Source of the DNA: a virus
Taxonomy: Duplodnaviria > Heunggongvirae > Uroviricota > Caudoviricetes
Virus record (IMG/VR): IMGVR_UViG_2547132253_000001
DNA length: 17,844 nt
Reading direction: 5' to 3' (one strand)
Both the position numbers and the translations under genes were made by a program. The notes under the pieces are model-generated. The model did not search any database. It had not been told where the DNA came from and worked only from the letters and a program-made list of their open reading frames with translations. Shown piece after piece: positions 1,369 through 17,844 of the stretch. How positions within the stretch are numbered: the stretch's first letter is position 1; every line of letters begins with the position of its first letter.

Positions 1369-1444
1369 GCCGATATAGCTCAGTTGGTAGAGCAGCGCAT
1401 TCGTAATGCGAAGGTCGTAGGTTCGACTCCTATTATCGGCACCA
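1369..1444 (+). tRNA. thrW: tRNA-Thr (anticodon CGU)
   Basis: 76 nt GCCGATATAGCTCAGTTGGTAGAGCAGCGCATTCGTAATGCGAAGGTCGTAGGTTCGACTCCTATTATCGGCACCA: 7-bp acceptor stem (GCCGATA/TATCGGC), D-loop AGCTCAGTTGGTAGAGC, anticodon loop with CGT, T-arm GGTTCGACTCC, encoded 3' CCA; sits directly downstream of proA. Confidence 0.92.
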
Positions 1445-1460
1445 TTCAAACATCTCCCCA

Positions 1461-1547
1461 AGTCTACTAAAGTCTTTCAAAACCCCTTATAATCCGCGTA
1501 TTAAAGCCCCGTTCGTCTTTTGACGTCTACTAAAGTCCCTCAAAATC
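1461..1547. repeat. Two about 22-bp direct repeats in the attL region, candidate integrase arm-type or accessory-factor sites
   Basis: AGTCTACTAAAGTCTTTCAAAA (1461-1482) and CGTCTACTAAAGTCCCTCAAAA (1524-1545), about 90% identical; GGGGGTA motif at 1560-1566 and 1571-1577, with inverted copy TACCCCC at 1601-1607. Confidence 0.5.
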
Positions 1548-1609
1548 TACGGTCAGATGGGGGTACTTATGGGGGTATTTGCTGTTCGGTTTAGTGGAGG
1601 TACCCCCAA

Positions 1610-2824: not shown

Positions 2825-2917
2825 AACAACTGGACAAGTATACAGAGGTTTACTAAAGTATAGGGGAGTAGATTGATAAAAACTCACAGAGGATTACTAT
2901 TTAACAGTTAGCCCTGG

Positions 2918-3214
2918 AGAAGGGCAATCGCTCTTTTAACAACGAAGATGGAATCTTCTACGCAGCTGAAAAGCTGGATGCTCTTTAACAGCCTTTGGTG
3001 CTTTCCTGATGCAGGAAAGAATAGGGATACATGCACCTTTACAATGCATGTAATGATTCATCCATGAGGCTGCGGATCGCTGACAAAGCGCAATTGCTCT
3101 TTAACATTGATGTGGGCGGGATGGTTCGTCCCGCAGTGACCGATAGATTTCTATCGGGAAACATACAATGATTCAAATATGAATCTACGGCGCTGACAAA
3201 GCGCAATTGCTCTC
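2918..3214. repeat. Family of three related direct repeats with a near-palindromic GCAATTGC core, in the int-alpA intergenic region
   Basis: AATGATTCA...CGCTGACAAAGCGCAATTGCTCT at about 3052-3101 and again at about 3166-3213 (23-bp identical core); diverged third copy GGGCAATCGCTCTTTTAACA at 2920-2939. Core AAGCGCAATTGCTCTT is nearly self-complementary. Confidence 0.55.
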
Positions 3215-3355
3215 TTGCCTGCCCACCATGCCCTGAAAAAGGGCGTTCTTTAAAACTACTGGATGTCACGCCTAATAGCGTGATCCTGCCGAAATGCAGG
3301 GTAGCTCTACCCTTGTGGAGCAAACAAACCAAAACAATCTGACTATCTTTTATAA

Positions 3356-3388
3356 AAGACCGCAATATGTTTTTCATATTGTGGTCTT
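3356..3388. repeat. Inverted repeat (14-bp arms, 5-nt T loop), operator-like or hairpin
   Basis: AAGACCGCAATATG-TTTTT-CATATTGTGGTCTT; arms complementary except one position (G.T wobble if RNA); about 90 bp upstream of alpA. Confidence 0.5.
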
Positions 3389-3475
3389 TGGCGTATTCGA
3401 CATTTGATGCAAATAAAACTCTCGCCATTCGTTGCAGGAGGGAGTTATTGCGTCATTAGTACAGGATATTAATAA

Positions 3476-3679
3476 ATGGCTAATTACAATTCATTAATTC
3501 GTCTCTCTGAAGTTCAAAGGCGAACTGGTTATAGCAAAGCATGGATTTATCGTCTTATTAGTCAGGGGAGGTTCCCTAAACAGGTAAAAATTGGAAGTCG
3601 GGCAATTGCTTTTGTTGAGTCTGAAATAGATGAATGGATTGAGAAGTGTATATTAGAATCTAGAGACGAGGTGGCCTGA
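3476..3679 (+). CDS. alpA: AlpA-family phage transcriptional regulator (HTH), 67 aa
   Basis: ATG 3476 to TGA 3677-3679; sequence LIRLSEVQRRTGYSKAWIYRLISQGRFPKQVKIGSRAIAFVESEIDEWI fits the AlpA/MerR-like HTH pattern; stop overlaps the next ATG (TGATG). Confidence 0.85.
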   Translation: MANYNSLIRLSEVQRRTGYSKAWIYRLISQGRFPKQVKIGSRAIAFVESEIDEWIEKCILESRDEVA

Positions 3680-4110
3680 TGGAAAAGAAAAACCGCCCAT
3701 TACAGGCGGCTAATTCAGATATTCGCGTATCTGATGTTACGCCCCTGACAAAATCCCTTCAAGCACCAAAGCGCACACCGAAAAAGCATCGTGCCAGAGT
3801 CTATATGCTGCGTACTGGTATAGAGGGATGGACAGAAAATGACATTCTTCGCTACTGCCGTCTGTCTTCTGGTCGTAACTATGCAACAGAGTTAGAACGC
3901 CAGCTTGGAATCACTCTGGAGCGTATCGACGAAAAGAATCCTGATGGTATCGGAACACACCTTCGCTACCGTTTCTCCTGCCGTGGTGATGTTCTGAAAG
4001 TGATCACTCATGTTAACCATCTTGCGAGCATAAATGATCACAACGGACTTTCTCAGCAGGAAATTGCCGACATTCTGAAACTCTACCCGGACGCGTTTAA
4101 CGCCGCCTAA
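3679..4110 (+). CDS. Hypothetical protein, 143 aa, basic N-terminus
   Basis: ATG 3679 preceded by GAGGTGG; translationally coupled to alpA; no motif I can assign. Confidence 0.6.
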   Translation: MEKKNRPLQAANSDIRVSDVTPLTKSLQAPKRTPKKHRARVYMLRTGIEGWTENDILRYCRLSSGRNYATELERQLGITLERIDEKNPDGIGTHLRYRFSCRGDVLKVITHVNHLASINDHNGLSQQEIADILKLYPDAFNAA

Positions 4111-4122
4111 CGGAGACTGAAA

Positions 4123-4956
4123 ATGAACATCGAAAAAAGCAGATTAATTTCTGAGGCCGCCCCTCATCTGAACGCCTCTCTGGGCACAATTAACGGTAAT
4201 GAATTTGCCGCAATTGTCCCGGTTATTCCTGGTCATATCGGTGGGCGTGAAACCAATATTGTTAGCGCAAAAGCGTTACACAAAGCGTTGGGCGTGGGAA
4301 AAGACTTCTCTACATGGATCACTGATCGCATCTCTGAATATGACTTCACCATTGGGCACGATTACTCAGTCCATAAAACAATTTCCCCAAATTTGGGGAA
4401 AAGCCCGAATGGCGCGGCTTACAGCAAGATTAAGCAGTCTGGCAGACCCGGCAAAGACTATCTGTTAAGTGTCGGAATGGCGAAAGAACTGGCAATGATC
4501 GAACGCAATGATCAGGGTCGCGCTATCCGCCGTTATTTCATCCAGTGCGAGGAAGAATTACAGCGTAGCGTGCCTGAAATCGCCGCCCGCTATCGTCGCC
4601 AGCTAAAAGCCCGTATCAGTGCCGCAAACAACTTTAAGCCAATGTGCGATGCGCTGAATATGGCCCGTGCCGAGATGGGTAAAACGACGCAGCAACACCA
4701 CTACACAAACGAGAGCAATATGATTTCTCGTATCGTTCTTGGTGGGCTAACTGCTAAACAGTGGGCGCGGATAAATGGCTATTCTGGCGAACCTCGCGAC
4801 CATATGAACGCAGAACAACTTGAGCACCTCTCATATCTCGAAAGCACCAATATCACGTTAATTGATATGGGCATGGAATATGAGCAGCGCAAAGGAGAAC
4901 TCACCCGCCTGTCGCAACGCTGGCTCGCCAAGCGTCTGGAGGTGGTCAATGTCTAA
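4123..4956 (+). CDS. Phage antirepressor-like protein (AntA/AntB-type N-terminal domain), 277 aa
   Basis: ATG 4123 with GGAGA SD; N-terminal region NIVSAKALHKALGVGKDFSTWITDRI and following LLSVGMAKELAMIERNDQGRAIRRYFIQCEEEL resemble the AntA/KilAC antirepressor pattern as I recall it. Confidence 0.65.
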   Translation: MNIEKSRLISEAAPHLNASLGTINGNEFAAIVPVIPGHIGGRETNIVSAKALHKALGVGKDFSTWITDRISEYDFTIGHDYSVHKTISPNLGKSPNGAAYSKIKQSGRPGKDYLLSVGMAKELAMIERNDQGRAIRRYFIQCEEELQRSVPEIAARYRRQLKARISAANNFKPMCDALNMARAEMGKTTQQHHYTNESNMISRIVLGGLTAKQWARINGYSGEPRDHMNAEQLEHLSYLESTNITLIDMGMEYEQRKGELTRLSQRWLAKRLEVVNV

Positions 4957-5131
4957 GCCAACAGGAACACCACAACCACAAAAACGCTACAAAGATGCCC
5001 ACGGAGCACTCGTTACTGTCGAAAGCGTGTCTCACAACCGAGTGACGTTTTATCGCGACGGGTATCAATCGCCATGCGTACAACCGCTGGCGCGTTTCAT
5101 GAAGGAGTTCGCGGAGGTTAACAAATGCTAA
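4949..5131 (+). CDS. Small hypothetical protein, 60 aa (DUF4222-like by recollection)
   Basis: ATG at 4949 overlaps the stop of the upstream gene (ATGTCTAA); this is the in-frame C-terminal part of track ORF 4862-5131; sequence MSKPTGTPQPQKRYKDAHGALVTVESVSHNRVTFYRDGY. Confidence 0.5.
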   Translation: MSKPTGTPQPQKRYKDAHGALVTVESVSHNRVTFYRDGYQSPCVQPLARFMKEFAEVNKC

Positions 5132-5562
5132 CCGTCCAGAAGAAGACATTTTCACTGGCTGGTATGTCGCCAAAATCCAGCAATATGACGGCAAAGTCAG
5201 GCATTAATACAGCAGATACAAGCAAAGTTTATCATTTGCTGTTGGTCGGAACGGATGCCTTAACCATATCAGAAATCTCGGGCGATGATATTAGCATTGA
5301 GAAGGTCAGCGGCTGCGCCAGAAAATTTCTGGTCGTAGATGATGTCTTCCGCTCGTGTAGTGACTCCACAAAAACATTCGTCCACGCGCGTGACGTTAAC
5401 GAAATGAGCGCGATGTACTGTGCATCTGGTGCTTCCAATAGCGAGTTTTCGGAGTCCATAAAAAAGAGCTTGCCGTTATGCGGCAACACGGTTTATGGTT
5501 ATAAGGCACCTCATAAAACGGGTGCCGGGATTGGCGTCCTGGTAAATCGAATGGCGACATAT

Positions 5563-5584
5563 GACGCGCCGAGCGTCTTTTTTT
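5563..5584 (+). terminator. Rho-independent terminator
   Basis: GACGC-GCCGA-GCGTC hairpin (5563-5577) followed by TTTTTTT (5578-5584). Confidence 0.6.
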
Positions 5585-5611
5585 ATGTCGTAGGTCTGAC
5601 TCACCCATTTT

Positions 5612-5636
5612 TTGGGCGTTGGTGTATAATCCAGCG
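5612..5636 (+). promoter_or_regulatory. Putative sigma70 promoter (perfect -10 TATAAT at 5625-5630; no good -35)
   Basis: TATAAT hexamer 5625-5630 immediately after the terminator and about 150 nt upstream of the Icd-like start; the -35 element is weak or mis-spaced (TTGGGC at 5612-5617). Confidence 0.3.
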
Positions 5637-5639
5637 CCT

Positions 5640-5786
5640 TTGTCAATCAATGGTGGCTCAGGCAGGGGCTTCTTCGGAAGCGCCGGTATCCATTCGAGCC
5701 GGTTACGCCAACCCTGTCTGGGCTACCACCAGCGAAATTGGCGTTTCCGGTGGTAGCGTTACATGCTATCGAATGGAGGCTGCCAC
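5640..5786 (+). ncRNA. Candidate structured leader / small regulatory RNA (P4 CI- or C4-like immunity RNA hypothesis)
   Basis: GCUUC-UUCG-GAAGC tetraloop hairpin (5668-5681); 9-bp stem GCTACCACC (5722-5730) pairing with GGTGGTAGC (5749-5757); an upstream GGTGG (5652-5656) could pair alternatively with CCACC; no coding frame supported here. Confidence 0.3.
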
Positions 5787-5981
5787 ATGCTGGCTACTAC
5801 CCCTACCCAAAAACCGCAATTTATCTGGATTATCGCCGCAGTTCGCCGCGATTGCCCGACAATTACCGCCAAAATTCATCATATTGCTGCCGAGTCTGAA
5901 CGCGATGCTCGCCGTTCTCTGGTGCGCGATCACGTCTGCTTTTTTGCTGGTCGTATCCGCATGGAGGTGGCTCATGATTAA
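5787..5981 (+). CDS. Icd-like host cell division inhibitor family protein, 64 aa
   Basis: ATG 5787 with GGAGG at 5775-5779; MLATTPTQKPQFIWIIAAVRRDCPTITAKIHH... resembles the Icd-like small proteins of P4-like prophages (recollection). Lies in a different frame inside the artifactual 355-aa track ORF. Confidence 0.65.
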   Translation: MLATTPTQKPQFIWIIAAVRRDCPTITAKIHHIAAESERDARRSLVRDHVCFFAGRIRMEVAHD

Positions 5982-6192
5982 AACCTACGATGTGCATATG
6001 GATCCCCTCGAACGCACAAGCCAGATCATCACACTGACAGAAGTGATTAACGACATTCTGGTGAGCAACTCTCCCTCACGAGACGAAAGACTGAAGGCGT
6101 TACTCGCGATATTGGATCTCGCCGTTCGTGACGTTCATTTCCTGCTGGAAGGTGGCGAAATGCCAGGAAAAACGGGGGCAACCAATGAATAA
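5974..6192 (+). CDS. Hypothetical small protein, 72 aa
   Basis: ATG 5974 preceded by GGAGGTGG (5963-5970); overlaps the Icd-like stop (ATGATTAA); C-terminal in-frame part of track ORF 5125-6192. Confidence 0.55.
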   Translation: MIKTYDVHMDPLERTSQIITLTEVINDILVSNSPSRDERLKALLAILDLAVRDVHFLLEGGEMPGKTGATNE

Positions 6193-6379
6193 CTCAATTA
6201 ATACCCCTCGCCTTACGTCCGCACTTCAATTAATCGAGCAAGCAGCGGCTGTCCTGGTTGCTGTCAGTCTTTCGGCTGAAGAAATGGACGCTGCTGATGT
6301 CGTGGATGCGATTAAAGCGTGCTCATCTTTGGTTAACGATGCCCGTGCCGAGCTGGTAATTCTTGGGGGTGAAAAATGA
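6185..6379 (+). CDS. Hypothetical small protein, 64 aa
   Basis: ATG 6185 overlaps the upstream stop (ATGAATAA); in-frame part of track ORF 6128-6379. Confidence 0.5.
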   Translation: MNNSINTPRLTSALQLIEQAAAVLVAVSLSAEEMDAADVVDAIKACSSLVNDARAELVILGGEK

Positions 6380-6639
6380 ATATCAACTTAATTTATCGTC
6401 ATCCGTGTGAGCTGGAAATTGAATCATTGCTGGGGCGTGAAGAGCCATATCCAGACACATTCACTCCCGCAGATTGCGCGACTGAACGGCTTACCAGAGC
6501 GCGCACAGGTCTGGTTCATGTGATGAATGAGATTGTTCCCTCGGTGGGAGGGGAACAGGCGACAGTAATCAATAGCTGGCTACAAAAAGTTACCTCCCTG
6601 ATAGATATCGGTTTAATCGATGTGGAGAGTGCGAAATGA
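6376..6639 (+). CDS. Hypothetical small protein, 87 aa
   Basis: ATG 6376 overlaps the upstream stop (ATGA); SD GGGGTGA upstream. Confidence 0.55.
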   Translation: MNINLIYRHPCELEIESLLGREEPYPDTFTPADCATERLTRARTGLVHVMNEIVPSVGGEQATVINSWLQKVTSLIDIGLIDVESAK

Positions 6640-6857
6640 CCAACATCCAGCTCATTGAAGCGCAATGTCGCATCGAACAGGTTCAGACTGTTTTAGGGTT
6701 CTGGCTTGAAGGGGCCAGCCCCAGCAACAGAGACAAGTTAATGATTGGCGCGGTTATGTCACTGCTCAATGGCGTACCAGAAGCTATTCAGGAAGCGGAC
6801 GAATTGTTGGGCAAATATGAGTTACAGAATCATTCAGGCGAGGCGAAACATGAATAA
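6636..6857 (+). CDS. Hypothetical small protein, 73 aa
   Basis: ATG 6636 overlaps the upstream stop (ATGA); part of the coupled operon leading to the primase. Confidence 0.55.
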   Translation: MTNIQLIEAQCRIEQVQTVLGFWLEGASPSNRDKLMIGAVMSLLNGVPEAIQEADELLGKYELQNHSGEAKHE

Positions 6858-7452
6858 TTTCTTAACCTTCCATGCAGAAGCAACGCCTGACGGCGTAAAC
6901 ATCATGCACCGCAGCAACGATGGCATGACAGAACGCGTTGAGACCGTCTCATATATTGATGCCGTAAATCGTCTGGATGCCGGGGATTATGACGATAAAC
7001 CAGATGAAGGCATGTTTATACATCTCGCTATTGCCAGTGGCGGCAACCAGGGATATTTCGATTACACATCACAGCATCACGTGATTATGTGGCGCTGGCT
7101 GATAGCAACAGCATTCATCAATGAAATGAGAAAGGAAAACGGCACCGTCAGCATTATTGATGACAGTGGCAATCATTCCGTGGTTTCTGTTTATTCCAAT
7201 GGCATCGTCGCCATGCCGCTGTATCCAGTAGCAGAGCGCCTCGCTATGGCAAACAACATTGAGGGCGCAATGATCGAGAAATATGGTGTTGATGTCGGAA
7301 CAAAGAATGCCATCATTTTTTACAGCAACATGTTCGATGTCGAACAGGGAACACTCACTTCGTTTGGGCGAGAAGTGCTTGCCGATCTTCACAACAGCTT
7401 TATTGCCGAACTAAACGAAAACGGCATCCCAGAAGCACCAGTGACGCACTAA
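6850..7452 (+). CDS. Hypothetical protein, 200 aa
   Basis: ATG 6850 overlaps the upstream stop (ATGAATAA); the track ORF 6745-7452 is extended upstream, but the internal ATG with coupling is the more plausible start; immediately precedes the primase. Confidence 0.6.
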   Translation: MNNFLTFHAEATPDGVNIMHRSNDGMTERVETVSYIDAVNRLDAGDYDDKPDEGMFIHLAIASGGNQGYFDYTSQHHVIMWRWLIATAFINEMRKENGTVSIIDDSGNHSVVSVYSNGIVAMPLYPVAERLAMANNIEGAMIEKYGVDVGTKNAIIFYSNMFDVEQGTLTSFGREVLADLHNSFIAELNENGIPEAPVTH

Positions 7453-7464
7453 ACGGGGGCCAGA

Positions 7465-10221
7465 ATGCGAAACATTGATCTTATCCGTCAGGTTATCAGT
7501 GCGTCTGAAAACAACTGGCCTCATGTGCTGGGCTGTCTGAACATAAATGTCCCTGACTCTCCTCGCCGTCATGCTCCCTGCCCTGCATGTGGGGGCAAAG
7601 ATCGATTCCGGTTCGACGACAACGGGCGCGGTAGCTTCATCTGTAATCAGTGCGGCGCTGGTGATGGGCTGGATTTAATTAAACGCGTAAATAACTGCGA
7701 CACAACAGAGGCGGCGCTTCTTGCCGCTGATGTTCTGGGTATTGATTACCGGACAACGGAAACACCAGAAGCCACCAGCCAGAAACGGGAACAACTGGAA
7801 ACCGAGCGCCAGCGACGCGAACAGGAGCGCCTGAAAAGGGCAGAGAAGGACGAACAACAAAGACGGGATACGTTTTCCCGTCAGTTTGATGACATGCGCA
7901 GAAAGGCTGTAAACGGCAAATCTGATTATCTGGTTGCGAAAGGGGTAGGTGATTTTACATTCCCAGTGTTGCCCGATGGATCTCTGTTGCTGGCGCTGGT
8001 GGATAAATCCGGCGCAGTCACAGCAGCACAGACTATTACCTCACATGGTGAAAAAAGACTCCTGACAGGTTCAGCAAAGCGAGGGGCATATCACGCCATA
8101 AACGCACCAGAAACAACACAGAGCATCTTAATCGCAGAAGGGCTGGCAACGGCATTATCTGCCCATTTAATTCGTCCAGAATCGCTGACAGTGGCGGCGA
8201 TTGATGCCGGGAACCTGTTATATGTCGCCCAGGTACTGCGGGATAAATTTCCTTCAGCACAAATCATCATTGCTGCGGATAACGACCACAGCGAAGGAAG
8301 ACAAAACACGGGGAGAATAGCAGCAGAAAAAGCAGCTTTATCTGTTTCTGGATGGGTGGCATTACCCCCGACAGATCACAAAGCAGACTGGAATGATTAC
8401 CACCAAAAACACGGCATTAAATGCGCCACAGAAGCGTTCAATAAGTCAATGTACCAACCACAGGGTAATGGCGTGAAACAGCAGCCACAGACCATTGAGG
8501 GAAGCGATTTTAAGGTTATGGATACCGACCCACTGAAACCAAGAATAGAAAGCCGCGAGGATGGTATTTATTGGGTATCTCCGAGAGCTGACAGCCAGAG
8601 TGGAGAAATCATCAATAACGAAAGCTGGTTATGTTCTCCGTTAAGCGTTATCGGTACTGGCAGAGACGATAAAGACCAGTATCTCATTCTTCGCTGGCTG
8701 TCGTTTGGTTCTGAAACGCCGACAACCGCTGCCATTCCACTGGCTGATATTGGTGAACGTGAAGGATGGCGCACACTTAAAGCTGGTGGGGTAAATGTCA
8801 CGACCAAAAGCAGCCTCAGAGCAATACTGGCAGACTGGCTACAACGCAGTGGCTCTCGTGAATTGTGGCGTGTTGCTCATGCCACTGGCTGGCAATGCGG
8901 AGCGTACATCATGCCTGATGGGGAAATCATCGGAACACCTGAAAATCCTGTGCTGTTCAGCGGGAGAAGCTCAGCCGCAGCCGGATATACCGTCTCAGGG
9001 AGCGCGAAAAGCTGGCGTGATAACGTGGCGCGTCTGGCCTTTGGTAACTATTCAATGATGACCGGGATCGGCGCAGCACTGGCAGCGCCATTGATTGGGC
9101 TGGTGGGCGCTGACGGGTTCGGCATTCATTTCTATGAGCAGTCGAGCGCAGGTAAGACCACCACGGCAAACGTGGCGAGCAGCTTATACGGCAACCCTGA
9201 TTTACTGCGGCTGACGTGGTACGGAACCGCGCTGGGGCTGGCAAATGAAGCCGCCGCCCACAATGACGGACTAATGCCGCTTGATGAAGTTGGTCAGGGC
9301 GCTGATCCTGTCAGTGTTTCACAGTCTGCCTATGCGTTATTTAACGGTGTAGGGAAACTGCAAGGCGCTAAAGATGGTGGAAACCGGGATCTAAAACGCT
9401 GGCGTACAGTGGCAATCAGCACTGGAGAAATGGATTTAGAAACATTTATCGCTACTTCCGGGCGAAAAACCAAAGCCGGGCAACTGGTGCGACTGCTGAA
9501 TATTCCGTTGAGTAAAGCAGTACGCTTTCACGATTACCAGAACGGAAAACAGCACGCAGACGCACTGAAAGACGCTTACCAGCATCACCACGGCGCAGCC
9601 GGGCGTGAGTGGATTAAATGGCTGGCAGACCACCAGCAACAGGCTATTAAAACTGTTCGTGACTGCGAAAGCAGATGGAGAAGCCTGATTCCATCCGATT
9701 ATGGTGAGCAGGTTCACCGTGTAGCCGCGCGATTTGCCATTCTGGAGGCCGCATTGCTGTTAGGCGAGGTTGTAACAGGCTGGGATGCTCAGACATGCCG
9801 TGATGCGATACAGCACAGCTATAACGCATGGTTGCGCGAGTTCGGCACAGGTAACAAAGAACATCAGCAGATTATTGAACAAACGGAGGCATTTCTTAAT
9901 GCCTATGGGCTTAGCCGTTTTGCACCATTTCCATACAGCCCGGCAGATTTGCCAATCAAAGATTTAGCCGGATACCGTCAGCGTGGAGAACATGACGAAA
10001 GCCCAATGATTTTCTACACATTCCCGGCCACATTTGAAAAGGAGATCGCATGTGGTTTCAACGCAAAACAGTTTGCTGAAGTGTTGAAAAAAGCCGGGAT
10101 GCTAACCCCACCAAACAGCGGTCGTGGATACCAAAGAAAATCACCACGTATTCAGGGACGACAAATAAACGTTTATGTACTCAATTACCAGCCAGGAGAT
10201 TACAACTCATCTGAAGAATGA
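7465..10221 (+). CDS. P4 alpha-like replication protein: zinc-finger/TOPRIM primase fused to a P-loop (D5/DUF927-like) helicase, 918 aa
   Basis: ATG 7465 with GGGGG SD; N-terminal zinc motif CPACGGKDRF...FICNQCG; TOPRIM-like acidic motif IIIAADNDHSEGR; P-loop FYEQSSAGKTTTANV in the C-terminal half; followed directly by iterons. Confidence 0.9.
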   Translation: MRNIDLIRQVISASENNWPHVLGCLNINVPDSPRRHAPCPACGGKDRFRFDDNGRGSFICNQCGAGDGLDLIKRVNNCDTTEAALLAADVLGIDYRTTETPEATSQKREQLETERQRREQERLKRAEKDEQQRRDTFSRQFDDMRRKAVNGKSDYLVAKGVGDFTFPVLPDGSLLLALVDKSGAVTAAQTITSHGEKRLLTGSAKRGAYHAINAPETTQSILIAEGLATALSAHLIRPESLTVAAIDAGNLLYVAQVLRDKFPSAQIIIAADNDHSEGRQNTGRIAAEKAALSVSGWVALPPTDHKADWNDYHQKHGIKCATEAFNKSMYQPQGNGVKQQPQTIEGSDFKVMDTDPLKPRIESREDGIYWVSPRADSQSGEIINNESWLCSPLSVIGTGRDDKDQYLILRWLSFGSETPTTAAIPLADIGEREGWRTLKAGGVNVTTKSSLRAILADWLQRSGSRELWRVAHATGWQCGAYIMPDGEIIGTPENPVLFSGRSSAAAGYTVSGSAKSWRDNVARLAFGNYSMMTGIGAALAAPLIGLVGADGFGIHFYEQSSAGKTTTANVASSLYGNPDLLRLTWYGTALGLANEAAAHNDGLMPLDEVGQGADPVSVSQSAYALFNGVGKLQGAKDGGNRDLKRWRTVAISTGEMDLETFIATSGRKTKAGQLVRLLNIPLSKAVRFHDYQNGKQHADALKDAYQHHHGAAGREWIKWLADHQQQAIKTVRDCESRWRSLIPSDYGEQVHRVAARFAILEAALLLGEVVTGWDAQTCRDAIQHSYNAWLREFGTGNKEHQQIIEQTEAFLNAYGLSRFAPFPYSPADLPIKDLAGYRQRGEHDESPMIFYTFPATFEKEIACGFNAKQFAEVLKKAGMLTPPNSGRGYQRKSPRIQGRQINVYVLNYQPGDYNSSEE

Positions 10222-10243
10222 GCTTCTTCATGTGCGTAGAAAA

Positions 10244-10360
10244 GGTGTTGGTTCAGTTGGTTCAGTTGGTTCAATTTGTAAAGAGTATTGTTTTATAAGG
10301 ATTTTATTCTTTTTATTGAACCAACACTGAACCAACAACACGGTATTTTGAACCAACACA
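10244..10360. repeat. Origin-like iteron cluster (ori): 3 tandem GTTGGTTCA, about 43-bp AT-rich spacer, 3 inverted TGAACCAAC
   Basis: GTTGGTTCA at 10247-10255, 10256-10264, 10265-10273; AT-rich 10274-10316; TGAACCAAC at 10317-10325, 10328-10336, 10349-10357; 22 bp downstream of the primase stop. Confidence 0.7.
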
Positions 10361-10678
10361 ATGTGACTGAATTGATGCGCACAACACCTGGCTGGCATCA
10401 GAGAGTGTTTTACGAGACTTTCGTAAAATCCTGTGTACAAGGGCGTGACGTTTTTGAAAGTGAGCACTACGAAATTTTCGTAGTTCAAAAAACAGCCTTT
10501 GAGAAGTTGTTATGCCTGTTCAGCAAACCATCCGCATAGCTGATCGCGAATCAAATTACCAATGGAGCCAGAAGCAAGGGCAGAACTGGAAAGCGCCTGC
10601 CGTGAAGAGTAATGCGACACCATAAATATAGTTTTTAGAGTCCATAAAAAACCTGTCAAAACCTGACATACAGAACGA

Positions 10679-10710
10679 TGCCACCAGCTACTGAGCGGTG
10701 GCATTTTTTT
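10679..10710 (+). terminator. Rho-independent terminator separating the replication module from the cargo operon
   Basis: TGCCACC...GGTGGCA stem (10679-10703) followed by TTTTTTT (10704-10710). Confidence 0.55.
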
Positions 10711-10805
10711 GTGCTATTTGTTTCATATTTTGCAATTACGATGATGAATATTGCGATTTGTGAAACTATAATAACTGTTGTTTTATACAGTTCTAAGGGG
10801 GCGTT

Positions 10806-10979
10806 ATGGCTATTTCAGTAAAGCCAGTATTGATAAGTGAGAAGCAAATGGAAGCGATAAAGAAAATTCAGGAGGAGCAGCGTAAAAAATCAGAGGTAGG
10901 AGTTGCGCCAACGATCCACGAAATTGCTCGGGGATTAATGGATAAGGCGCTGGCTTACACTTTAACTGGACGTGGGTAA
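10806..10979 (+). CDS. Small protein, 57 aa, possible ribbon-helix-helix DNA-binding protein; first gene of the cargo operon
   Basis: ATG 10806 preceded by strong SD AAGGGGG (10795-10801) and a TATAAT at 10767-10772; below the 60-aa cutoff of the ORF track; sequence MAISVKPVLISEKQMEAIKKIQEEQRKKSEVGVAPTIHEIARGLMDKALAYTLTGRG. Confidence 0.45.
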   Translation: MAISVKPVLISEKQMEAIKKIQEEQRKKSEVGVAPTIHEIARGLMDKALAYTLTGRG

Positions 10980-10983
10980 ATCA

Positions 10984-12450
10984 ATGGCTACGTGGCAACA
11001 GGGTATTAATTCTGGTGGTTTTCTGGCTGGCATCGGTACGCAAAATGAGAATGCGCCAAAGGCAAGCGACATTAACGCAACGCTTGGTCTGATCCGCGAA
11101 AACAATGAACTGGCTCGCTCAGGTGCAAATAACGTTGGTCTGACCGCGTTACGTGGTCTGGCTGGAGTTGCTGATATTTATAAGCAGCAGCAACAGCAGG
11201 AGCGTAAAGCGGCATTCCAGAAAGGTTATGCAGATGCTTATGCGTCCGGCGACAGGGAGCAGATGCGTAATCTTATTACAGCATTCCCAGAAGAGTTTGA
11301 GGAAGTCCGTAAAGGGATGAGTTATGTCGATGATGCTCAAAGGGATGATTATGGCAATCTGGCGCTCAAAGCACAGGTAGCCTCATCGCTTGGTCCGGGC
11401 GCATTTGGCAGGTTCATGATGGATAATGAGCAGGAGATGCGTCGTTTAGGTATCCCTCCAGAAACTATTGCTGAAATGCAGGTTAATGACCCGCAGGGCT
11501 TCCAGCATTTCGCAGGTAATCTGGCGCTGTTTTCTCTCGGTCATGAGAAGTATTTCGATATCAAAGATCAAATGGAAGGTCGGGATATTGAGCGCGGCGA
11601 GTTGGCAGAGACAATCCGCAGCAATCAGGCTGGCGAAGCACTTCAGGCGAGAGGGCAGGATATTAGCCGAGCAAATGCGTTAACGTCAGCATATGCACCA
11701 ACAGCAGCAATGCAGAATTACAATCAGTACGCTCAAATGTTAAAGGCGGATCCAGAGGGGGCGGCGGCATTTGCGGCAGCGGCTGGAATTAATACAAACG
11801 CCAAAAAATTAATGAGTGTTAGGGAAAACGATGATGGCACTGTCACAAAATACTACACAGACGGAAGTGAAGAGCAGGGAAAACTAAACCAGCCAATATC
11901 TGGAGATGGGTTTCGTCCAATAGCTTTGCCAACAGCTCAAAAGATCATGGAAAAGTCGCCAGAAGGGGCTAAAAAAGCTGCTGGATTTGCATACAGAGTT
12001 AGGGATGCTCTTGATTCAATGGATACACTGAAAGGCCAGATTAGCCCACAGCGAGTGGCGATCATTAATAATGCTTTGGGTAATGGGACGCTGGCTAACT
12101 TAACGCTCAGCCCAACAGAGCAGCAATACGTTGTTAATGCTAATGACGCAATAATGGCAATACTCCGTCAGGAAACAGGGGCAGCTATCGTACCTGCTGA
12201 AATGTCAAAATATTATCAAATGTATTTCCCTCAGCCTGGTGATTCCACAAAAACCATTGATACCAAGCGCCGGAAGATGGAAAACCAGTTCAATTCGCTG
12301 AAAGCTGCTTCTGGTCGAGCTTATGATGCTTTGCAGGTTATTTCAGCAGTTGACAGAGGAACTTCTTCTTCGTCGCAGACATTGCCGCAATCTGAGCAGG
12401 TATCACAGCCAGCAGCCAGCAGTAACTTTTCTTCACTATGGGGTGATTAA
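10984..12450 (+). CDS. Uncharacterized Ala/Gln/Gly-rich protein, 488 aa (cargo gene 1)
   Basis: Long ORF; ATG at 10984 (MATWQQ) preferred over the track GTG at 10972; low-complexity composition (QQQQQ run, AAAFAAAAG), few aromatics, no catalytic or NTP-binding motif I can see; stop overlaps the next start. Confidence 0.7.
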   Translation: MATWQQGINSGGFLAGIGTQNENAPKASDINATLGLIRENNELARSGANNVGLTALRGLAGVADIYKQQQQQERKAAFQKGYADAYASGDREQMRNLITAFPEEFEEVRKGMSYVDDAQRDDYGNLALKAQVASSLGPGAFGRFMMDNEQEMRRLGIPPETIAEMQVNDPQGFQHFAGNLALFSLGHEKYFDIKDQMEGRDIERGELAETIRSNQAGEALQARGQDISRANALTSAYAPTAAMQNYNQYAQMLKADPEGAAAFAAAAGINTNAKKLMSVRENDDGTVTKYYTDGSEEQGKLNQPISGDGFRPIALPTAQKIMEKSPEGAKKAAGFAYRVRDALDSMDTLKGQISPQRVAIINNALGNGTLANLTLSPTEQQYVVNANDAIMAILRQETGAAIVPAEMSKYYQMYFPQPGDSTKTIDTKRRKMENQFNSLKAASGRAYDALQVISAVDRGTSSSSQTLPQSEQVSQPAASSNFSSLWGD

Positions 12451-13427
12451 TGGCTAAAGCATGGAAAGATGTTATCGCCTCTCCACAGTATCAGGCGTTA
12501 GCACCAGAACAAAAAGCGCAGGCTCAGGAGCAATACTTCAACGAAGTCGTTGCCCCGCAAGCCGGAGAAAGTGTAGAGCAGGCTAAGCAGGCTTTTTATG
12601 CTGCCTATCCACTACCATCAACGAATGAAATAGACCGAGCCCAATCAGCAACTCAAAATATTCAACATACATCATCTGATAATTCTCTTGCGTCAGGGTA
12701 TGCAAAGTTAGCGACTCAGCAAAGAGAGGGGCTTGAACGTTCAGCAGAACAGGGAGCCAGTCTTGGGGCTGCGATGCGCGATGCTATAACAGGCGAAAGC
12801 CGAATGACTCCAGAGATGGAGAGACTGCAAAATGTCGACCTTGCCCCAGAGTTAACCTCACTCAGCATGGATGCTCTAAAAGCTCGATGGTCTCAACTTT
12901 TCGGCTCTGACGCATCTCAGGAAAAGATTCTTCAGAGCATGGGAGCGAAATTAAGGCAGGATGAGAAGGGTAACACTATCGTTTCCCTACCATCCGGTGA
13001 TTATGCTCTGAACAAGCCGGGTTTATCACCGCAAGACGTGGCATCGTTTCTGGCTAATGCGCTGGCGTTTACACCAGCGGGCAGGGCCGGAACGGTGCTG
13101 GGGGCCATAGGGAAATCAGCAGCTACAGATTTAGCACTACAGGGAGCCACCAGCCTCGCTGGTGGAGAAGATATTGATCCGTTACAAACGGTAATCTCTG
13201 CTGGCATTGGCGGCATTGGTAAGGGTCTGGAGAATACAGTGAGTGCCGTTTCGAGGGCCGTTCGCGGTGATATGGCACCGGAAGCGAAAGCCGCTGTTGA
13301 TTTTGCATCGGAAAGAAACCTACCGTTAATGACCAGTGACGTACTGAAAGATAAAAACACTGTGCAGAGTCTGGCCCAGAAAACAGGCGAAAAAATTCCT
13401 TTTTTGGAACGGGTACGAACAGGCTGA
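12450..13427 (+). CDS. Uncharacterized Ala/Gly/Ser-rich protein, 325 aa (cargo gene 2); possibly the N-terminal part of a frameshifted fusion with gene 3
   Basis: ATG 12450 overlapping the gene 1 stop (TAATG), SD-like GGGG upstream; glycine-rich stretches (VLGAIGKSAATDLALQGATSLAGG, ISAGIGGIGKG); ends 22 nt after a T_TTT_TTG heptamer. Confidence 0.65.
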   Translation: MAKAWKDVIASPQYQALAPEQKAQAQEQYFNEVVAPQAGESVEQAKQAFYAAYPLPSTNEIDRAQSATQNIQHTSSDNSLASGYAKLATQQREGLERSAEQGASLGAAMRDAITGESRMTPEMERLQNVDLAPELTSLSMDALKARWSQLFGSDASQEKILQSMGAKLRQDEKGNTIVSLPSGDYALNKPGLSPQDVASFLANALAFTPAGRAGTVLGAIGKSAATDLALQGATSLAGGEDIDPLQTVISAGIGGIGKGLENTVSAVSRAVRGDMAPEAKAAVDFASERNLPLMTSDVLKDKNTVQSLAQKTGEKIPFLERVRTG

Positions 13428-13576
13428 ATCAACAACAGGCTCGGGAAAATCTGGTCAGAACATATAACGATGGTCTGGGAGGCATTTCAGATAAACAGCT
13501 TTATGAGTCTGCTACTAAAGGGCAGCAAAAATTCATTGAGGCCGCAGGTAAGCGATATAACCGCATAATTGACGCT

Positions 13577-14554
13577 ATGGGGGATACCCCTGTCGACCTA
13601 TCAAACACGGTAAAAGCTATCGACAATCAGATTGCCGTGTTAAGCCGCCCGGGCAAATCTCAGGATAGAGCCGCGGTAAAAGTCTTGCAGCAATTTAAAG
13701 ACGATATCACCAGCGGACCCAATGACCTGCGTCTGGCGAGAGAAAACAGAACTGACCTTCGAAAGCGGTTCATGAATTCAAACGAGACTGTTGATAAAGA
13801 CACGCTCCAGAAAGCCAGCGATATTGTCTACAAGGCATATACGCTGGATATGAGAAGGGCAGTAGCCCAGAAACTGGGTTCAGAAGAAGCAGCCAATATG
13901 GCAAGGGTTGATCGCTCATGGTCTAAATTCAATGACATGATGGGAAGAACGCGCGTTCAAAAGGCAATAGCCAGCGGCAAGGCCACGCCTGAGGATGTAA
14001 CAAAACTCGTGTTTAGCCAAAGCCCATCAGAACGTTCTCAGCTTTACAGGCTTCTGGATGACAATGGTAGGCAAAACGCACGAGCAGCCATAGTTCAGAA
14101 TGCTGTAGATAAGGCGACTGATCCGTCTGGAAATATCAGTGTTGAGAAGTTTATTAATGCGTTACACCGGAACAGGAAGCAATCAGCAACTTTCTTTAAA
14201 GGCGTGCACGGAAAGGAACTGGACGGCATTATTAAATACCTCAACGATACCAGACAGGCGGCAAAGGTTGACGGTCAGAAATTAAACAGCCAGAAACTTT
14301 ATGGCCTGCTGGTTGGTGGAGGCGCTATAAATGCGGCAGTTCTGGCGGGGATGCTGAAAACGGCTGCGTTTGTTGTTCCTGCTGCTGGTGCTTTAGGCGG
14401 AGCAGCGAAGGCATACGAAAGCCCTGTTATACGAAATGCCTTATTACGTCTGGCAAATACGCCAAAAGGTAGCACAGCATATGACAGAGCGATCAGTACA
14501 GTCACACAATCACTGACCACAGCAGCACAAGCATCGCAAAAGGAAGCTCAATAA
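13577..14554 (+). CDS. Uncharacterized protein, 325 aa as annotated (cargo gene 3), with C-terminal glycine-zipper hydrophobic hairpin; reading frame is open upstream to 13355
   Basis: First ATG at 13577 has no SD; the same frame is open and protein-like from 13355 with no ATG/GTG/TTG in between; hydrophobic Gly/Ala-rich segments LYGLLVGGGAINAAVLAGML and AAFVVPAAGALGGAA near the C-terminus. Confidence 0.6.
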   Translation: MGDTPVDLSNTVKAIDNQIAVLSRPGKSQDRAAVKVLQQFKDDITSGPNDLRLARENRTDLRKRFMNSNETVDKDTLQKASDIVYKAYTLDMRRAVAQKLGSEEAANMARVDRSWSKFNDMMGRTRVQKAIASGKATPEDVTKLVFSQSPSERSQLYRLLDDNGRQNARAAIVQNAVDKATDPSGNISVEKFINALHRNRKQSATFFKGVHGKELDGIIKYLNDTRQAAKVDGQKLNSQKLYGLLVGGGAINAAVLAGMLKTAAFVVPAAGALGGAAKAYESPVIRNALLRLANTPKGSTAYDRAISTVTQSLTTAAQASQKEAQ

Positions 14555-14613
14555 CAGATGACCATGGATGGTTGGCTATAATAGTAATTAGTTTTTTCAA
14601 ATAGTTATGAACA

Positions 14614-15012
14614 TTAACACTTGCCTTTAACATTGCCGACAAATGAGCCTGTAAATGAGCCTATATCAGATCGACTAATTGTTCGTGTATGGATCACTTT
14701 TCCGTCATTTGAGATTGCCCATGTGACAAGCGTCAGTTGACCATCTCGATAGCTTCTTCCCATCATGGCATTCGGAGATAGCGGGTAATAATCAATACCT
14801 CCACCTATACCATCTTTTGCCAAGATAAGATCCGCCTTCTCTTTACTTATTACCAAATGAAAGGTATCTGGTATAGATGATAACTTATAGTTATACCCAT
14901 CTGAACTTGAGGCTTCTTGTCCTTTCAGATCACCAATAATCCAGCATTCAGCGTTCGCTCCAAAAGAAGCAAATAATAAACCGGAGACAACCAATCGCTT
15001 CAATTGATTCAC
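14614..15012 (-). CDS. Small secreted/periplasmic protein of unknown function, 132 aa precursor with Sec signal peptide
   Basis: GTG start (complement of 15010-15012) preceded on the minus strand by strong SD AAGGGAGGG; N-terminus MNQLKRLVVSGLLFASFGANA then E (positively charged n-region, hydrophobic core, A-x-A cleavage motif); the longer 218-aa track ORF 14614-15270 is an upstream extension lacking an SD. Confidence 0.6.
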   Translation of the reverse strand: MNQLKRLVVSGLLFASFGANAECWIIGDLKGQEASSSDGYNYKLSSIPDTFHLVISKEKADLILAKDGIGGGIDYYPLSPNAMMGRSYRDGQLTLVTWAISNDGKVIHTRTISRSDIGSFTGSFVGNVKGKC

Positions 15013-15204
15013 ACCAACCCTCCCTTTAGCGTTGTTTAGAATGGCAATCATCATATATCCAAGACATGGCATTTGGTACATAGCTTGGGTCGGGATTTCA
15101 AATCCGCCCCCGTTGATGGGGTCGTTACAGTACGCGCATATCCGCTTTATGTGAAACAGGAAGATTTTTCTGATATCACTGCCACAGCAAAACACCAATT
15201 TCGA

Positions 15205-15505
15205 GACAAGTACGCGCGCGAGGGGTATCAGTTGCAAAAAGTTTTGCAACTGCGTCCGACCAGTACGCACACAATGGAGGGGAGTACCATGAAACTGTTC
15301 TCTACACGAGACAGAGTGGTGGTGATGTGTTGATTATCGGCGTATATGCGCACAGGACGCGCTATGACGATGTTTTATGCGGGTACACCATCACATGTAT
15401 CTGGTGTGATAAATCGCGTTACATGACCTCTCATGTTGTGCTGGTGGTTATCACGACTTTCTGAATCTGGCCTTTGCCTGATATTTTGCGACAAGTACGC
15501 GCGCG
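15205..15505. repeat. Two copies of a 16-bp perfect direct repeat GACAAGTACGCGCGCG (15205-15220 and 15490-15505), with a related inverted partial copy between them
   Basis: Identical 16-mers 285 bp apart with similar left flanks (TTTCGA / TTTTGC); alternating CG core; related GTACGCGCATAT at 15130-15141 and its near-complement ATATGCGCAC at 15345-15354. Confidence 0.5.
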
Positions 15506-15656
15506 TAGCATCGAAATTATCGGATGGCGTATGCTGCTGGCAATATGAAGACCGATAGTATTAACCGAAAAGCGATTAAGGAGTGCCAACTTTTCAGTAG
15601 AGAAACTAGCCAGCATAGGAAAATGTAGAAATTACCCAATTAATAGGTAAAAGTTA

Positions 15657-15774
15657 TTGACACAGCCTGTAGTGGATAACGATATGAATAAAAACCACAT
15701 ATAGTGGTTTTTCGTGAGTGATGATAGTACCTATGTTAGTTTCCTAAGTAACTGTGCATTGACATGTGGATAAC
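15657..15774 (+). promoter_or_regulatory. Two TTGACA hexamers each followed by a DnaA-box-like GTGGATAAC motif, upstream of the Abi gene
   Basis: TTGACA 15657-15662 followed by AGTGGATAAC 15671-15680; TTGACA 15759-15764 followed by TGTGGATAAC 15765-15774 (TGTGGATAA is the reverse complement of the DnaA box TTATCCACA); palindrome AAAAACCAC-ATATA-GTGGTTTTT at 15690-15712. Confidence 0.35.
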
Positions 15775-15884
15775 TTCGGATAGAGTTACACTCAACTGAG
15801 CCCGGCCCCCTGGCTTTATCTTGTCTTAGATGAGAAATTGTTATGGCCGGGCCTTCTTGTATCTGGAGGTAGGAAACCTTTTGT

Positions 15885-16754
15885 ATGGCTGTTCCGGTTA
15901 AGGTTCATAAAGAATATGATGAACTTGTCGATTTATTGCTGTCTCGGGGTATGGATGTGCCAGATCGCGAACATGCTATCAAGAAAATCTCACAAGTAGG
16001 CTACTACCGATTATCAGGCTTTTGGTACCCCTGCCGAATCCCCCATATAACAACAGACAATATTAGAACCAGACTCGATCAGGTTCGTCCAGGTACTAAT
16101 TTTCGCGCAGTATATGACCTCTATTTATTCGATAAAAATCTGCGTTTGCAGATGATGAATGCGTTAGAACGCATTGAGGTTTATGTTCGGTCAGTTATTG
16201 CTCATGAGCTTGGTAAGATATCTCCTTTAGCATATCTTGATGACTCGCTAATAAATCCAAAACACTTTAGACCACGTTCCCATGGTCGCCCAAGCGCCAG
16301 AGAAGAATGGATAAATAAACATAATGCCGAGATTGCTAAAAGTCGCGAAGACTTTATCAAATGGCATGAAAACAAGTACGAAGGTCTTCCTTTCTGGGTG
16401 GTTATTGAAGTGTGGGACTTCGGCTTAATGTCAAAGTATTATGCGATGCTAAAAGACAGCTATCGCAACAGGATACTATCTAGGCTAGGGATAGCGGCAG
16501 GCAATGGAGCTATCTTCCAAAACTGGCTTAGCGCAATGAATGTGCTAAGGAATCGGTGCGCTCACCATTCACGCATCTGGAACAAGGTCAACGAACCAAG
16601 ATTAATGCCTTTGCCAAATGAGCCGTACTTTGAACAATTAAATATGAATGATGATGCGTACGAAAGAATGTACGGAATGATCGCTGTGTTATGGTTTTTA
16701 GTGAAAAAAATTGGACCGGGATCTGACTGGATAAAAAAGTTGCCAACCTTGTAG
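15885..16754 (+). CDS. Abi_2 family (AbiD/AbiF-like) abortive-infection protein with HEPN-type R-x4-H motif, 289 aa
   Basis: N-terminal EYDELVDLLLSRGMDVPDREHAIKKISQVGYYRLSGFWYP matches the conserved Abi_2 N-terminal pattern as I recall it; LRNRCAHHSRIWN (nt about 16549-16572) carries an R-x4-H HEPN-like motif; ATG 15885, stop TAG 16752-16754. Confidence 0.8.
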   Translation: MAVPVKVHKEYDELVDLLLSRGMDVPDREHAIKKISQVGYYRLSGFWYPCRIPHITTDNIRTRLDQVRPGTNFRAVYDLYLFDKNLRLQMMNALERIEVYVRSVIAHELGKISPLAYLDDSLINPKHFRPRSHGRPSAREEWINKHNAEIAKSREDFIKWHENKYEGLPFWVVIEVWDFGLMSKYYAMLKDSYRNRILSRLGIAAGNGAIFQNWLSAMNVLRNRCAHHSRIWNKVNEPRLMPLPNEPYFEQLNMNDDAYERMYGMIAVLWFLVKKIGPGSDWIKKLPTL

Positions 16755-16847
16755 ATAACAAGCCTAACTTACCAGGATGTAACCTGACAGCCATGGGATT
16801 ACCTGATAATAACGGTTTCCCAAGGCATTTATTTGATATTGAATAAA

Positions 16848-17303
16848 TTATAGCGATGGCGCTGAATGTAGCGCCACTGATAACTTTTCAGCATTGCTTC
16901 CCTGACGCTTCCACGCGCTGTAAATATCTTTATCCCATGCCTTACCAGCTTTTGTTTGATAGCCTGCTTCATTGATCCGTTCAGCTATCACGCGCCCATT
17001 ATCAAATCCCTGTCGGATGGTATCGGCAATGATCTTTATAACTGCCGTTTCGTTATATGGCTTTGGTGGGATGTTCGGCTTTCCGGCAATAAGCGACGCA
17101 GCGGCTTTTTCCATGCGCTCCACCAGCCCAAGCATTCGTGAATCAATAGACTTTTCCGGCTGTCCCAGCTTCATGCGAATCGCATCAACAAGCCAGGAGG
17201 TTTTATCCCCTCCAGAAGCGAGAACAGACCGATTAAACTCATCCTGCAATTCAGATGGGATGCGGAACGCGACCAGATTAGATTTGCTCATTGCAAAGAC
17301 CAT
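16848..17303 (-). CDS. Putative DNA-binding regulator, 151 aa (N-terminal ribbon-helix-helix-like, C-terminal recombinase-type HTH-like segment)
   Basis: Minus-strand ORF convergent with the Abi gene; N-terminus SNLVAFRIPSELQDEFNRSV; C-terminal NGRVIAERINEAGYQTKAGKAWDKDIYSAWKRQ resembles the DNA-binding segment seen in serine-recombinase-associated domains. The start (first or second ATG) is uncertain. Confidence 0.55.
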   Translation of the reverse strand: MVFAMSKSNLVAFRIPSELQDEFNRSVLASGGDKTSWLVDAIRMKLGQPEKSIDSRMLGLVERMEKAAASLIAGKPNIPPKPYNETAVIKIIADTIRQGFDNGRVIAERINEAGYQTKAGKAWDKDIYSAWKRQGSNAEKLSVALHSAPSL

Positions 17304-17400
17304 ATCAGTGAGTAATATCCATACAGTATACCACTGTATAACACTGTTATACGCTCAAATATCAGCCAGAAAATAACGGACCAATCACAAAGCTATCGCT

Positions 17401-17529
17401 GTGTTGTTGGTTCAGAGCTGGGCTGTGTTGGTTCAAAATGAGTTGATGTTGGTTCAATATTTTAGAAAAAACACAATAAAAACAACGATCTTTACAAATT
17501 GAACCAACTGAACCAACTGAACCAACACC
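17401..17529. repeat. Second iteron cluster (crr-like), inverted relative to the ori cluster
   Basis: GTTGGTTCA at 17405-17413, 17427-17435, 17448-17456; AT-rich spacer; tandem TGAACCAAC x3 at 17500-17526; 17489-17529 is the exact reverse complement of 10244-10284 (41 bp). Confidence 0.7.
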
Positions 17530-17562
17530 TTTTTGCTTATCTATATAATCTGAGAGGCAGAA

Positions 17563-17844
17563 ATGATAAGGGACAGGAAAGCTGAAGAGCTGGAGTCAAA
17601 AGGGCTATACCGGAGAGCTGCCGCACGATGGATGGAAGTCATGCTGTTATGCACCGAGGACGATGATCGGGAATGGATAAAGCGCCGCCGTGAAACGTGT
17701 CTGGAGAACGTGAAGCGCCCGCCCGTGAAGGTTGAGGAATTTGGCGACCTGCATAAAGCTGTTACCGAAACGCAACACCGCATGGGGATAGCGCAACCGA
17801 ACGGTAACGCCTTCCGGTTAAATGGCGGCAAGAGGCAAAGGTAG
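17563..17844 (+). CDS. PerC-family-like small transcriptional regulator, 93 aa (family assignment tentative)
   Basis: ATG 17563 to TAG 17842-17844; MIRDRKAEELESKGLYRRAAARWMEV... resembles the PerC/Pch N-terminal motif as I recall it; SD-like GAGAGG upstream. Confidence 0.5.
   Translation: MIRDRKAEELESKGLYRRAAARWMEVMLLCTEDDDREWIKRRRETCLENVKRPPVKVEEFGDLHKAVTETQHRMGIAQPNGNAFRLNGGKRQR

Follow-up and report, generated by a model that had tools for sequence, protein, structure and literature searches.

A gp16-family ejection protein gene on an Escherichia coli island is very probably split by the loss of one base from a run of seven T's

The window, by which we mean the whole 17,844-nucleotide stretch of DNA that was analysed, is an integrated element adjoining proA and tRNA-Thr in E. 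coli. Its island genes include a tyrosine integrase, an HTH regulator, an antirepressor, an Ash-family gene and a 918-aa TOPRIM/DUF927 primase, and the primase is followed in the window by a P22-type ejection module in which a gp20-like gene precedes a gp16-like one. The gp20-like gene (10972..12450, plus strand) encodes a P22 gp20-like ejection protein (Inj_translocase) that matches Pfam PF16928 with an E value of 9e-85 and phrog_917 with one of 4e-145. Its stop codon overlaps the ATG of the gp16-like gene in a TAATG at 12448-12452, and the two genes stand in the same order as genes 20 and 16 of P22, genes 12 and 13 of Sf6 and their counterparts in phage N7. An integrase/primase island that carries no capsid or tail genes in the window thus has a gp20/gp16 module of its own; the corresponding island of E. 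coli HB37 additionally has DUF2824 and gp7-like genes. Matches to the gp16-like segment were found in 728 of 5,426 complete E. coli genomes, with at least 80% of the segment represented in 398.

The gp16-like gene, which belongs to the P22 gp16 family of DNA ejection or DNA transfer proteins, extends over 12450..14554 on the plus strand and is interrupted. It measures 2105 nt in the window, compared with 2106 nt in orthologs, whose intact product has 701 aa, and it is called as two open reading frames of 325 aa each. Gene 2 (12450-13427, plus strand) ends at a premature TGA at 13425-13427 and comprises the first 319 residues of the gp16-like protein followed by an out-of-frame tail of 6 residues; the sequence here, LERVRTG, departs from the intact protein starting at the L. 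Gene 3 (13577-14554, plus strand) lies in the -1 frame relative to gene 2 and corresponds to residues 377-701, the C-terminal 325, of the gp16-like protein. The frame of gene 3 has a TAA at 13352-13354 and is open from 13355, and re-reading the sequence agrees with the preliminary description both on this point and on the position of the gene 2 stop. Likewise as described there, the stretch from 13355 to 13576 has no start (none of ATG, GTG, TTG or a stop codon occurs among its 74 codons in the gene 3 frame), and the ATG at 13577 is without a Shine-Dalgarno sequence, no GGAG/GAGG-like motif being present in GCGATATAACCGCATAATTGACGCT, directly upstream of it.

Within the overlap of the two frames lie the two homopolymers that had drawn attention to the locus, and both are indeed present: an A6 run at 13390-13395 and the heptamer TTTTTTG at 13400-13406. 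Since a gene 2 codon starts at 13401, the heptamer reads CC(T TTT TTG), in the X_XXY_YYZ register. No stop interrupts the -1 frame anywhere in the overlap, and the 0-frame stop comes 19 nt 3' of the heptamer. The run of six T's (13400..13405, plus strand), which has seven T's in orthologs, is the site at which one base appears to have been lost. Beyond it, the start-less stretch in the -1 frame (13406..13576, plus strand) specifies residues ~321-376 (GTGTNRLNQQQARENLVRTYNDGLGG...) of the protein in its intact form, the segment with the conserved core motif of the family.

Together, genes 2 and 3 make up one ordinary phage gene for a gp16-family ejection protein, which orthologs and homologs carry as a single reading frame. 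Insertion of one T into the window yields a 701-aa open reading frame identical to the CDS WP_016238273.1 of the near-identical E. coli locus CP53, which upholds the earlier proposal that the two genes form one unit with a -1 offset at the T run and a joined product of about 700 aa. The profile phrog_770, annotated as a DNA transfer protein, aligns with the ortholog carrying the T7 run over residues 19-700 (profile positions 3-667 of 668, E 4.7e-156). In the window its coverage is divided, with gene 2 accounting for profile positions 3-266 and gene 3 for 325-667, while positions 267-324 correspond to the start-less stretch and so fall outside both called reading frames. That stretch had been described as protein-like; it in fact encodes the most conserved motif of the family, and phrog_770 runs straight through the junction in the T7 ortholog. 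In tblastn searches, the joined protein was aligned in one piece with Sf6 gp13 (residues 1-700, E 3e-82), with P22 gp16 (residues 210-683, E 7e-44) and with the phage N7 homolog (66.5% identity). Scanned against Pfam and NCBIfam, neither the fused protein nor either half matched a family even at E <= 10. P22 gp16 and Sf6 gp13 also have no match in the copies of these databases that we used, and because no model there recognizes even P22 gp16, the scans are uninformative. A sequence search of the PDB with the gp16-like protein returned no solved relative. A continuous reading frame of ~600-740 aa is a feature of the gp16 family, and it is found in the orthologs, whereas the window has 325 + 325 aa. 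As its reading frame is split by the T6 run, the window copy is a disrupted or mis-sequenced member of the family. The gene 3 product falls into a 90% cluster whose representative is a 355-aa "ash family protein"; a duplication of the island Ash gene (5125-6192) in gene 3 was considered and dropped, as there is no similarity between them (E > 1) and the label is a quirk of clustering.

The orthologs leave little doubt about which allele is the normal one. At the near-identical E. coli loci CP53 and LR14 the site reads CCTTTTTTTGG, with seven T's, and the gene is a single 2106-nt CDS of 701 aa; the codons at the site are CCT TTT TTT GGA, for Pro-Phe-Phe-Gly. Direct comparison of loci placed the T7 run in L001, L002, L004 and L017-L021, and the T6 run in the window, L003 and L005-L011; T8 was not seen at any locus examined, only T6 and T7. 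In 39 of the best 40 complete-genome matches the 2105-nt query aligns with a span of 2106 nt, and when 60 complete E. coli genomes were drawn across the whole ranking of matches to a 311-nt query covering the site, 59 of them spanned 312 nt. The exact 701-aa protein occurs on 377 contigs, and the 325-aa fragment was counted on 5 (8 contigs carrying it were read). Orthologs at 97, 94, 90 and 86% nucleotide identity all keep the T7 run and one open reading frame, of 670-701 aa, and among the E. coli alleles the run is retained down to 86% identity despite many substitutions nearby. T7 is therefore the ancestral state among the E. coli alleles sampled, and the ancestral run is made up of the final T of CCT and the two TTT codons after it. 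More distant homologs in phages (N7, Sf6 gp13, P22 gp16, Proteus V3 and a Vibrio phage) are likewise single reading frames, of 609-738 aa, and have no T run at the aligned spot, where their codons are ATA GCC, CTG GCT, TTG CTT, TTT GCT and GTT ACT. Alignment with them places the break inside the best-conserved motif of the family, AE.IP..GTG..R..QQ.AR..L, and shows the "start" methionine of gene 3 to be an internal Met/Leu column that the phage homologs conserve. The A6 run is the same in T7 and T6 alleles, so that of the two homopolymers first noted only the T run has a part in the split: it is the sole indel relative to the intact allele. In short, the gene reads as split because its T run is one base shorter in the record than in other copies (six against seven), and we consider it almost certain that a non-programmed loss of one base from this homopolymer divides what is one gp16-family gene; none of the evidence counts against this reading. 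The preliminary description had offered a genuine frameshift mutation and a homopolymer sequencing error among its explanations, and these two are the alternatives that fit the evidence.

Between them the balance is close. Over 6,978 bases the window matches scaffold GL878028.1 of GCA_000194255.1 with 100% identity. Against CP53 it shows one indel across 16.5 kb aligned, which is the T run, and the other five runs of seven in the window are all intact; the assembly is therefore not generally prone to indels, a point in favour of a real mutation. Between the gp20 and gp16 segment of the window and the T7 allele of CP53 there are 0 mismatches. Other contigs with the T6 run have SNP differences from the CP53 allele or carry different gp20 alleles, so that there is no T6 clade but rather a T6 run on several slightly different haplotypes, from which it follows that the change from T7 to T6 is recurrent. 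Recurrence of this sort is expected at a hotspot for miscalls, and is compatible with a hotspot for replication slippage too. The only complete genome with the T6 run is HB37, in which the island is present twice in tandem. Over 10.8 kb the two copies show 0 mismatches to each other and are distinguished by 4 single-base homopolymer indels; one of these is the T6/T7 difference itself, and another disrupts the gp7-like gene in the other copy. Because the second tandem copy, with no SNPs, has seven T's, the T6 run of HB37 is an assembly artefact. Three of the SRA-derived T6 contigs (L007, L009 and L010) also have G5>G4, G3>G2, G4>G3 or C5>C4 deletions, which again points to an artefact, and four T6 data sets (window/L006, L005, L008 and L011) show no further homopolymer errors, which favours a real mutation. 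We had considered whether the remaining contigs with six T's might count as independent evidence that the mutation is real, and dropped this since half of them are indel-prone; the indel-prone ones instead support recurrence of the miscall. Several T6 records besides the window are in this way shown to be artefactual. On balance an assembly undercall of the 7-mer is a slight favourite, at about even odds, and a genuine pseudogene produced by real replication slippage in the strain is a serious contender whose chances we put just short of even.

The layout of the locus might suggest something more purposeful. Programmed -1 ribosomal frameshifting, with a deliberate 325-aa product made alongside a ~701-aa fusion through tandem slippage on U UUU UUG, would account for a heptamer in the 0-frame register, an open -1 frame and a 0-frame stop close downstream, and phage genes such as those for tail assembly chaperones do use frameshift layouts of this kind. 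The register, however, is the automatic result of deleting any T from an in-frame T7 run and is no independent evidence for recoding. The alignment of orthologous loci that had been proposed as a check found neither the heptamer nor the two-frame layout conserved: the E. coli loci have one fused reading frame with T7, the phage homologs lack both the T run and the two frames, and about 99% of E. coli copies as well as all phage homologs examined are single reading frames. This absence of conservation refutes programmed frameshifting as it had been put forward. The heptamer itself is a poor one, as re-pairing of the A-site codon from UUG to UUU is non-cognate. In an E. coli survey, heterogeneous ZZN codons such as UUG shifted worse than homogeneous ones, the U_UUG tetramer reached only 1.8-3.6-fold over background even with the IS3 pseudoknot, and motifs without a stimulator reached at most ~10 times the 0.055% background (Sharma et al. 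2014, PMC4066793). As for stimulators, the 94 nt downstream (13407-13500) fold at -17.3 kcal/mol with z = -1.04, 37 of 200 shuffles being as good, and the 20 nt upstream of the heptamer, AAAACAGGCGAAAAAATTCC, have no SD-like GGAGG, so neither downstream structure beyond that of shuffles nor an upstream SD is on hand. Elsewhere, moreover, the T6 run is demonstrably an assembly error. Of four hallmarks of a programmed -1 site the locus thus has the register and lacks the other three (an efficient class of heptamer, a stimulator and conservation), and we regard this explanation as very improbable.

We are just as doubtful that the tract is a phase-variable (contingency) switch, in which slipped-strand mispairing would reversibly turn the ejection gene off (T6) and on (T7). 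Retention of the T7 tract in E. coli alleles to 86% identity and the recurrence of T6 on several haplotypes are what such a switch would predict, but a tract of seven bases is on the short side for effective contingency switching. Moreover, the T6 run occurs in one of the 60 sampled complete genomes, that one being artefactual, indel-prone data underlie at least half of the T6 records so that sequencing explains the recurrence, and no T8 accompanies T6 and T7 at the loci examined. The appreciable polymorphism in tract length beyond sequencing error that marks a contingency locus is accordingly lacking here. A related possibility, to which we give slightly more credence while still holding it improbable, is that the T6 run is real and the T tract acts as a leaky or reversible switch yielding a little full-length protein beside the 325-aa fragment. 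This might come about through low-level -1 ribosomal slippage, slippage of RNA polymerase on the T run, or T6/T7 phase variation, and, if true, it would tune whether helper-phage virions get the island's own gp16. Least credible of all is that genes 2 and 3 are truly distinct, gene 3 having a start of its own at M13577. Gene callers do annotate a 325-aa reading frame from 13577, and phrog_29117 (327 positions) starts exactly at that methionine. Yet this start has no SD, no alternative start exists within the 222 nt of open frame, and M13577 is internal in every intact homolog. In addition, the best-conserved motif of the family lies in the start-less stretch, and phrog_770 and all the phage genes are continuous over the junction. 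Most likely, phrog_29117 collects fragments of the same kind as gene 3.

A one-base loss from the T7 run would account for the locus in a simple way. The normal allele is a single 701-codon reading frame containing CCT TTT TTT GGA, and from its T7 run the record has lost one T. A ribosome translating the shortened message would read ...IPF-LERVRTG-stop after codon 319, leaving the remaining 382 codons in the -1 frame without a start of their own. The slip may have arisen in sequencing or assembly, as an undercall of the 7-mer, or in the DNA of the strain, as replication slippage leading to a pseudogene; under either origin frameshifting would play no part in the expression of the gene. Background slippage at U UUU UUG, expected to be sub-percent, would supply at most traces of full-length protein. 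If the T6 run is real, the 325-aa product would lack the conserved central motif and the entire C-terminal half. P22 DNA delivery needs all three ejection proteins (PMC10461980), and we therefore infer that the truncated products would be non-functional.

The outcome is mainly a negative result, in that a textbook-looking heptamer proves to be what a one-base loss leaves behind automatically, and it illustrates that register alone is no evidence for recoding where a homopolymer makes up the heptamer itself. The comparison further marks the T7 run as a site of recurrent miscalls in public E. coli assemblies. For annotation, it means that both 325-aa reading frames are to be merged into one 701-codon gp16-family gene or pseudogene. 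None of this is new in kind: the gene family is known, and PGAP already labels the same allele in HB37 as "frameshifted".

That HB37 pseudogene, an injection-protein entry under HKW69_RS00950, is the closest counterpart of the window gene, with an identical T6 allele at the identical site in DNA that is 99.9% identical. The two records differ in that the T6 error of HB37 is provable from its tandem copy, whereas the window has no such internal control. Bona fide -1 sites, such as the A_AAA_AAG of dnaX, those of IS911/IS3 and the G/GT-type sites of phage tail chaperones, resemble the window in combining a 0-frame X_XXY_YYZ heptamer with an open -1 frame. Unlike them, the window heptamer is of a weak class (with UUG in the A site) and has no hairpin, pseudoknot or SD, and, again in contrast to bona fide sites, neither it nor the two-frame architecture is conserved in orthologs.

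The intact gene is best compared with P22 gp16 and Sf6 gp13 of the P22-like podophages (Lederbergvirus). P22 gp16 is packaged in the virion, is released before DNA entry and is needed for the DNA to cross the inner membrane; in P22, gp16 has to be matched to its gp20, and changes that escape SieA map to gp16 residues 532 and 546 (PMC10461980). The window protein has only about 30% identity to P22 gp16, a value that is usual in so mosaic a family (PMC10461980). A P22-like prophage is complete, whereas the window gene sits on an integrase/primase island with no capsid, terminase or tail genes in the window, and the family reading frame is intact where that of the window is broken by a 1-nt loss. 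Common to the window gene, P22 gp16 and Sf6 gp13 are near full-length homology within a size class of 609-738 aa, a position directly 3' of a gp20 homolog with a similar start-stop overlap, and the conserved motif in the middle of the protein.

The gp20-like gene (10972-12450, +) and the gp16-like ejection protein gene directly downstream of it (12450-14554, +) are not housed in a complete P22-like prophage, as judged from window positions 1400-17844 and from the corresponding E. coli loci L004, which carries the intact seven-T allele (T7), and L022, from strain HB37. The element that carries them is integrated next to tRNA-Thr and proA, and in the window it encodes a tyrosine integrase (1610-2824), an AlpA-like HTH protein (3476-3679), an AntA/AntB antirepressor, an Ash-family gene and a TOPRIM/DUF927 primase (7465-10221). 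Capsid, terminase and tail genes are all absent from the window, and the layout of the island is therefore satellite- or PICI-like, yet it comes with ejection proteins of its own. Our literature search found no description of satellites that encode ejection proteins. Of 5426 complete E. coli genomes, 728 contain a match to the gp16-like segment and 398 retain at least 80% of it, and the HB37 variant of the island additionally contains DUF2824 and gp7-like genes.

HB37 (NZ_CP053080.1, 186000-215000) has two tandem copies of the island. A comparison of them over 10.8 kb shows no SNPs and four single-base homopolymer indels. The "frameshifted" pseudogene call falls on the gp16-like gene in one copy and on the gp7-like gene in the other. 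The tandem island is a clear case of unpolished long-read errors within a repeat. Two other loci with the six-T allele (T6), L007 and L010, are SRA-derived contigs from different runs (ERR10497821 and SRR30949554). Besides the T6 run, both have a second one-base deletion in the gp16-like gene, GGG to GG, aligned to window position 13651, and they likewise have in common a shortening of G4 to G3 at 15222. Either one strain or lineage was sequenced twice, or the platform made a systematic error at the same sites.

Within 12450-14554, phrog_29864 ("transglycosylase") covers residues 65-411, and phrog_29117 ("head morphogenesis", 327 positions) begins exactly at the internal methionine that opens the downstream half of the split gene, "gene 3". 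Both seem to be families put together from pieces of gp16-type genes, and neither label is likely to be reliable. The 90%-identity cluster of the "gene 3" product (P0016, P0017) has as its representative a 355-aa "ash family protein" to which that product has no detectable similarity (E > 1); this is a clustering artefact of the protein collection, and names drawn from the cluster would mislead.

The gp20-like gene is mosaic across islands whose gp16-like genes are 99.9% identical (window compared with the T6 loci L003 and L008). Around 11187-11421 the HB37 sequence departs from that of the window by numerous mismatches and indels, and the middle section of the gene is different in L008. Such variation fits the recombinational mosaicism that has been reported for ejection proteins. 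A minus-strand ORF directly downstream of the gp16-like gene (14614-15270), an Abi_2-family gene (15885-16754, +) and a PerC-family regulator (17563-17844, +) may constitute an exclusion or defence cargo region. The minus-strand ORF corresponds in position and orientation to sieA in P22.
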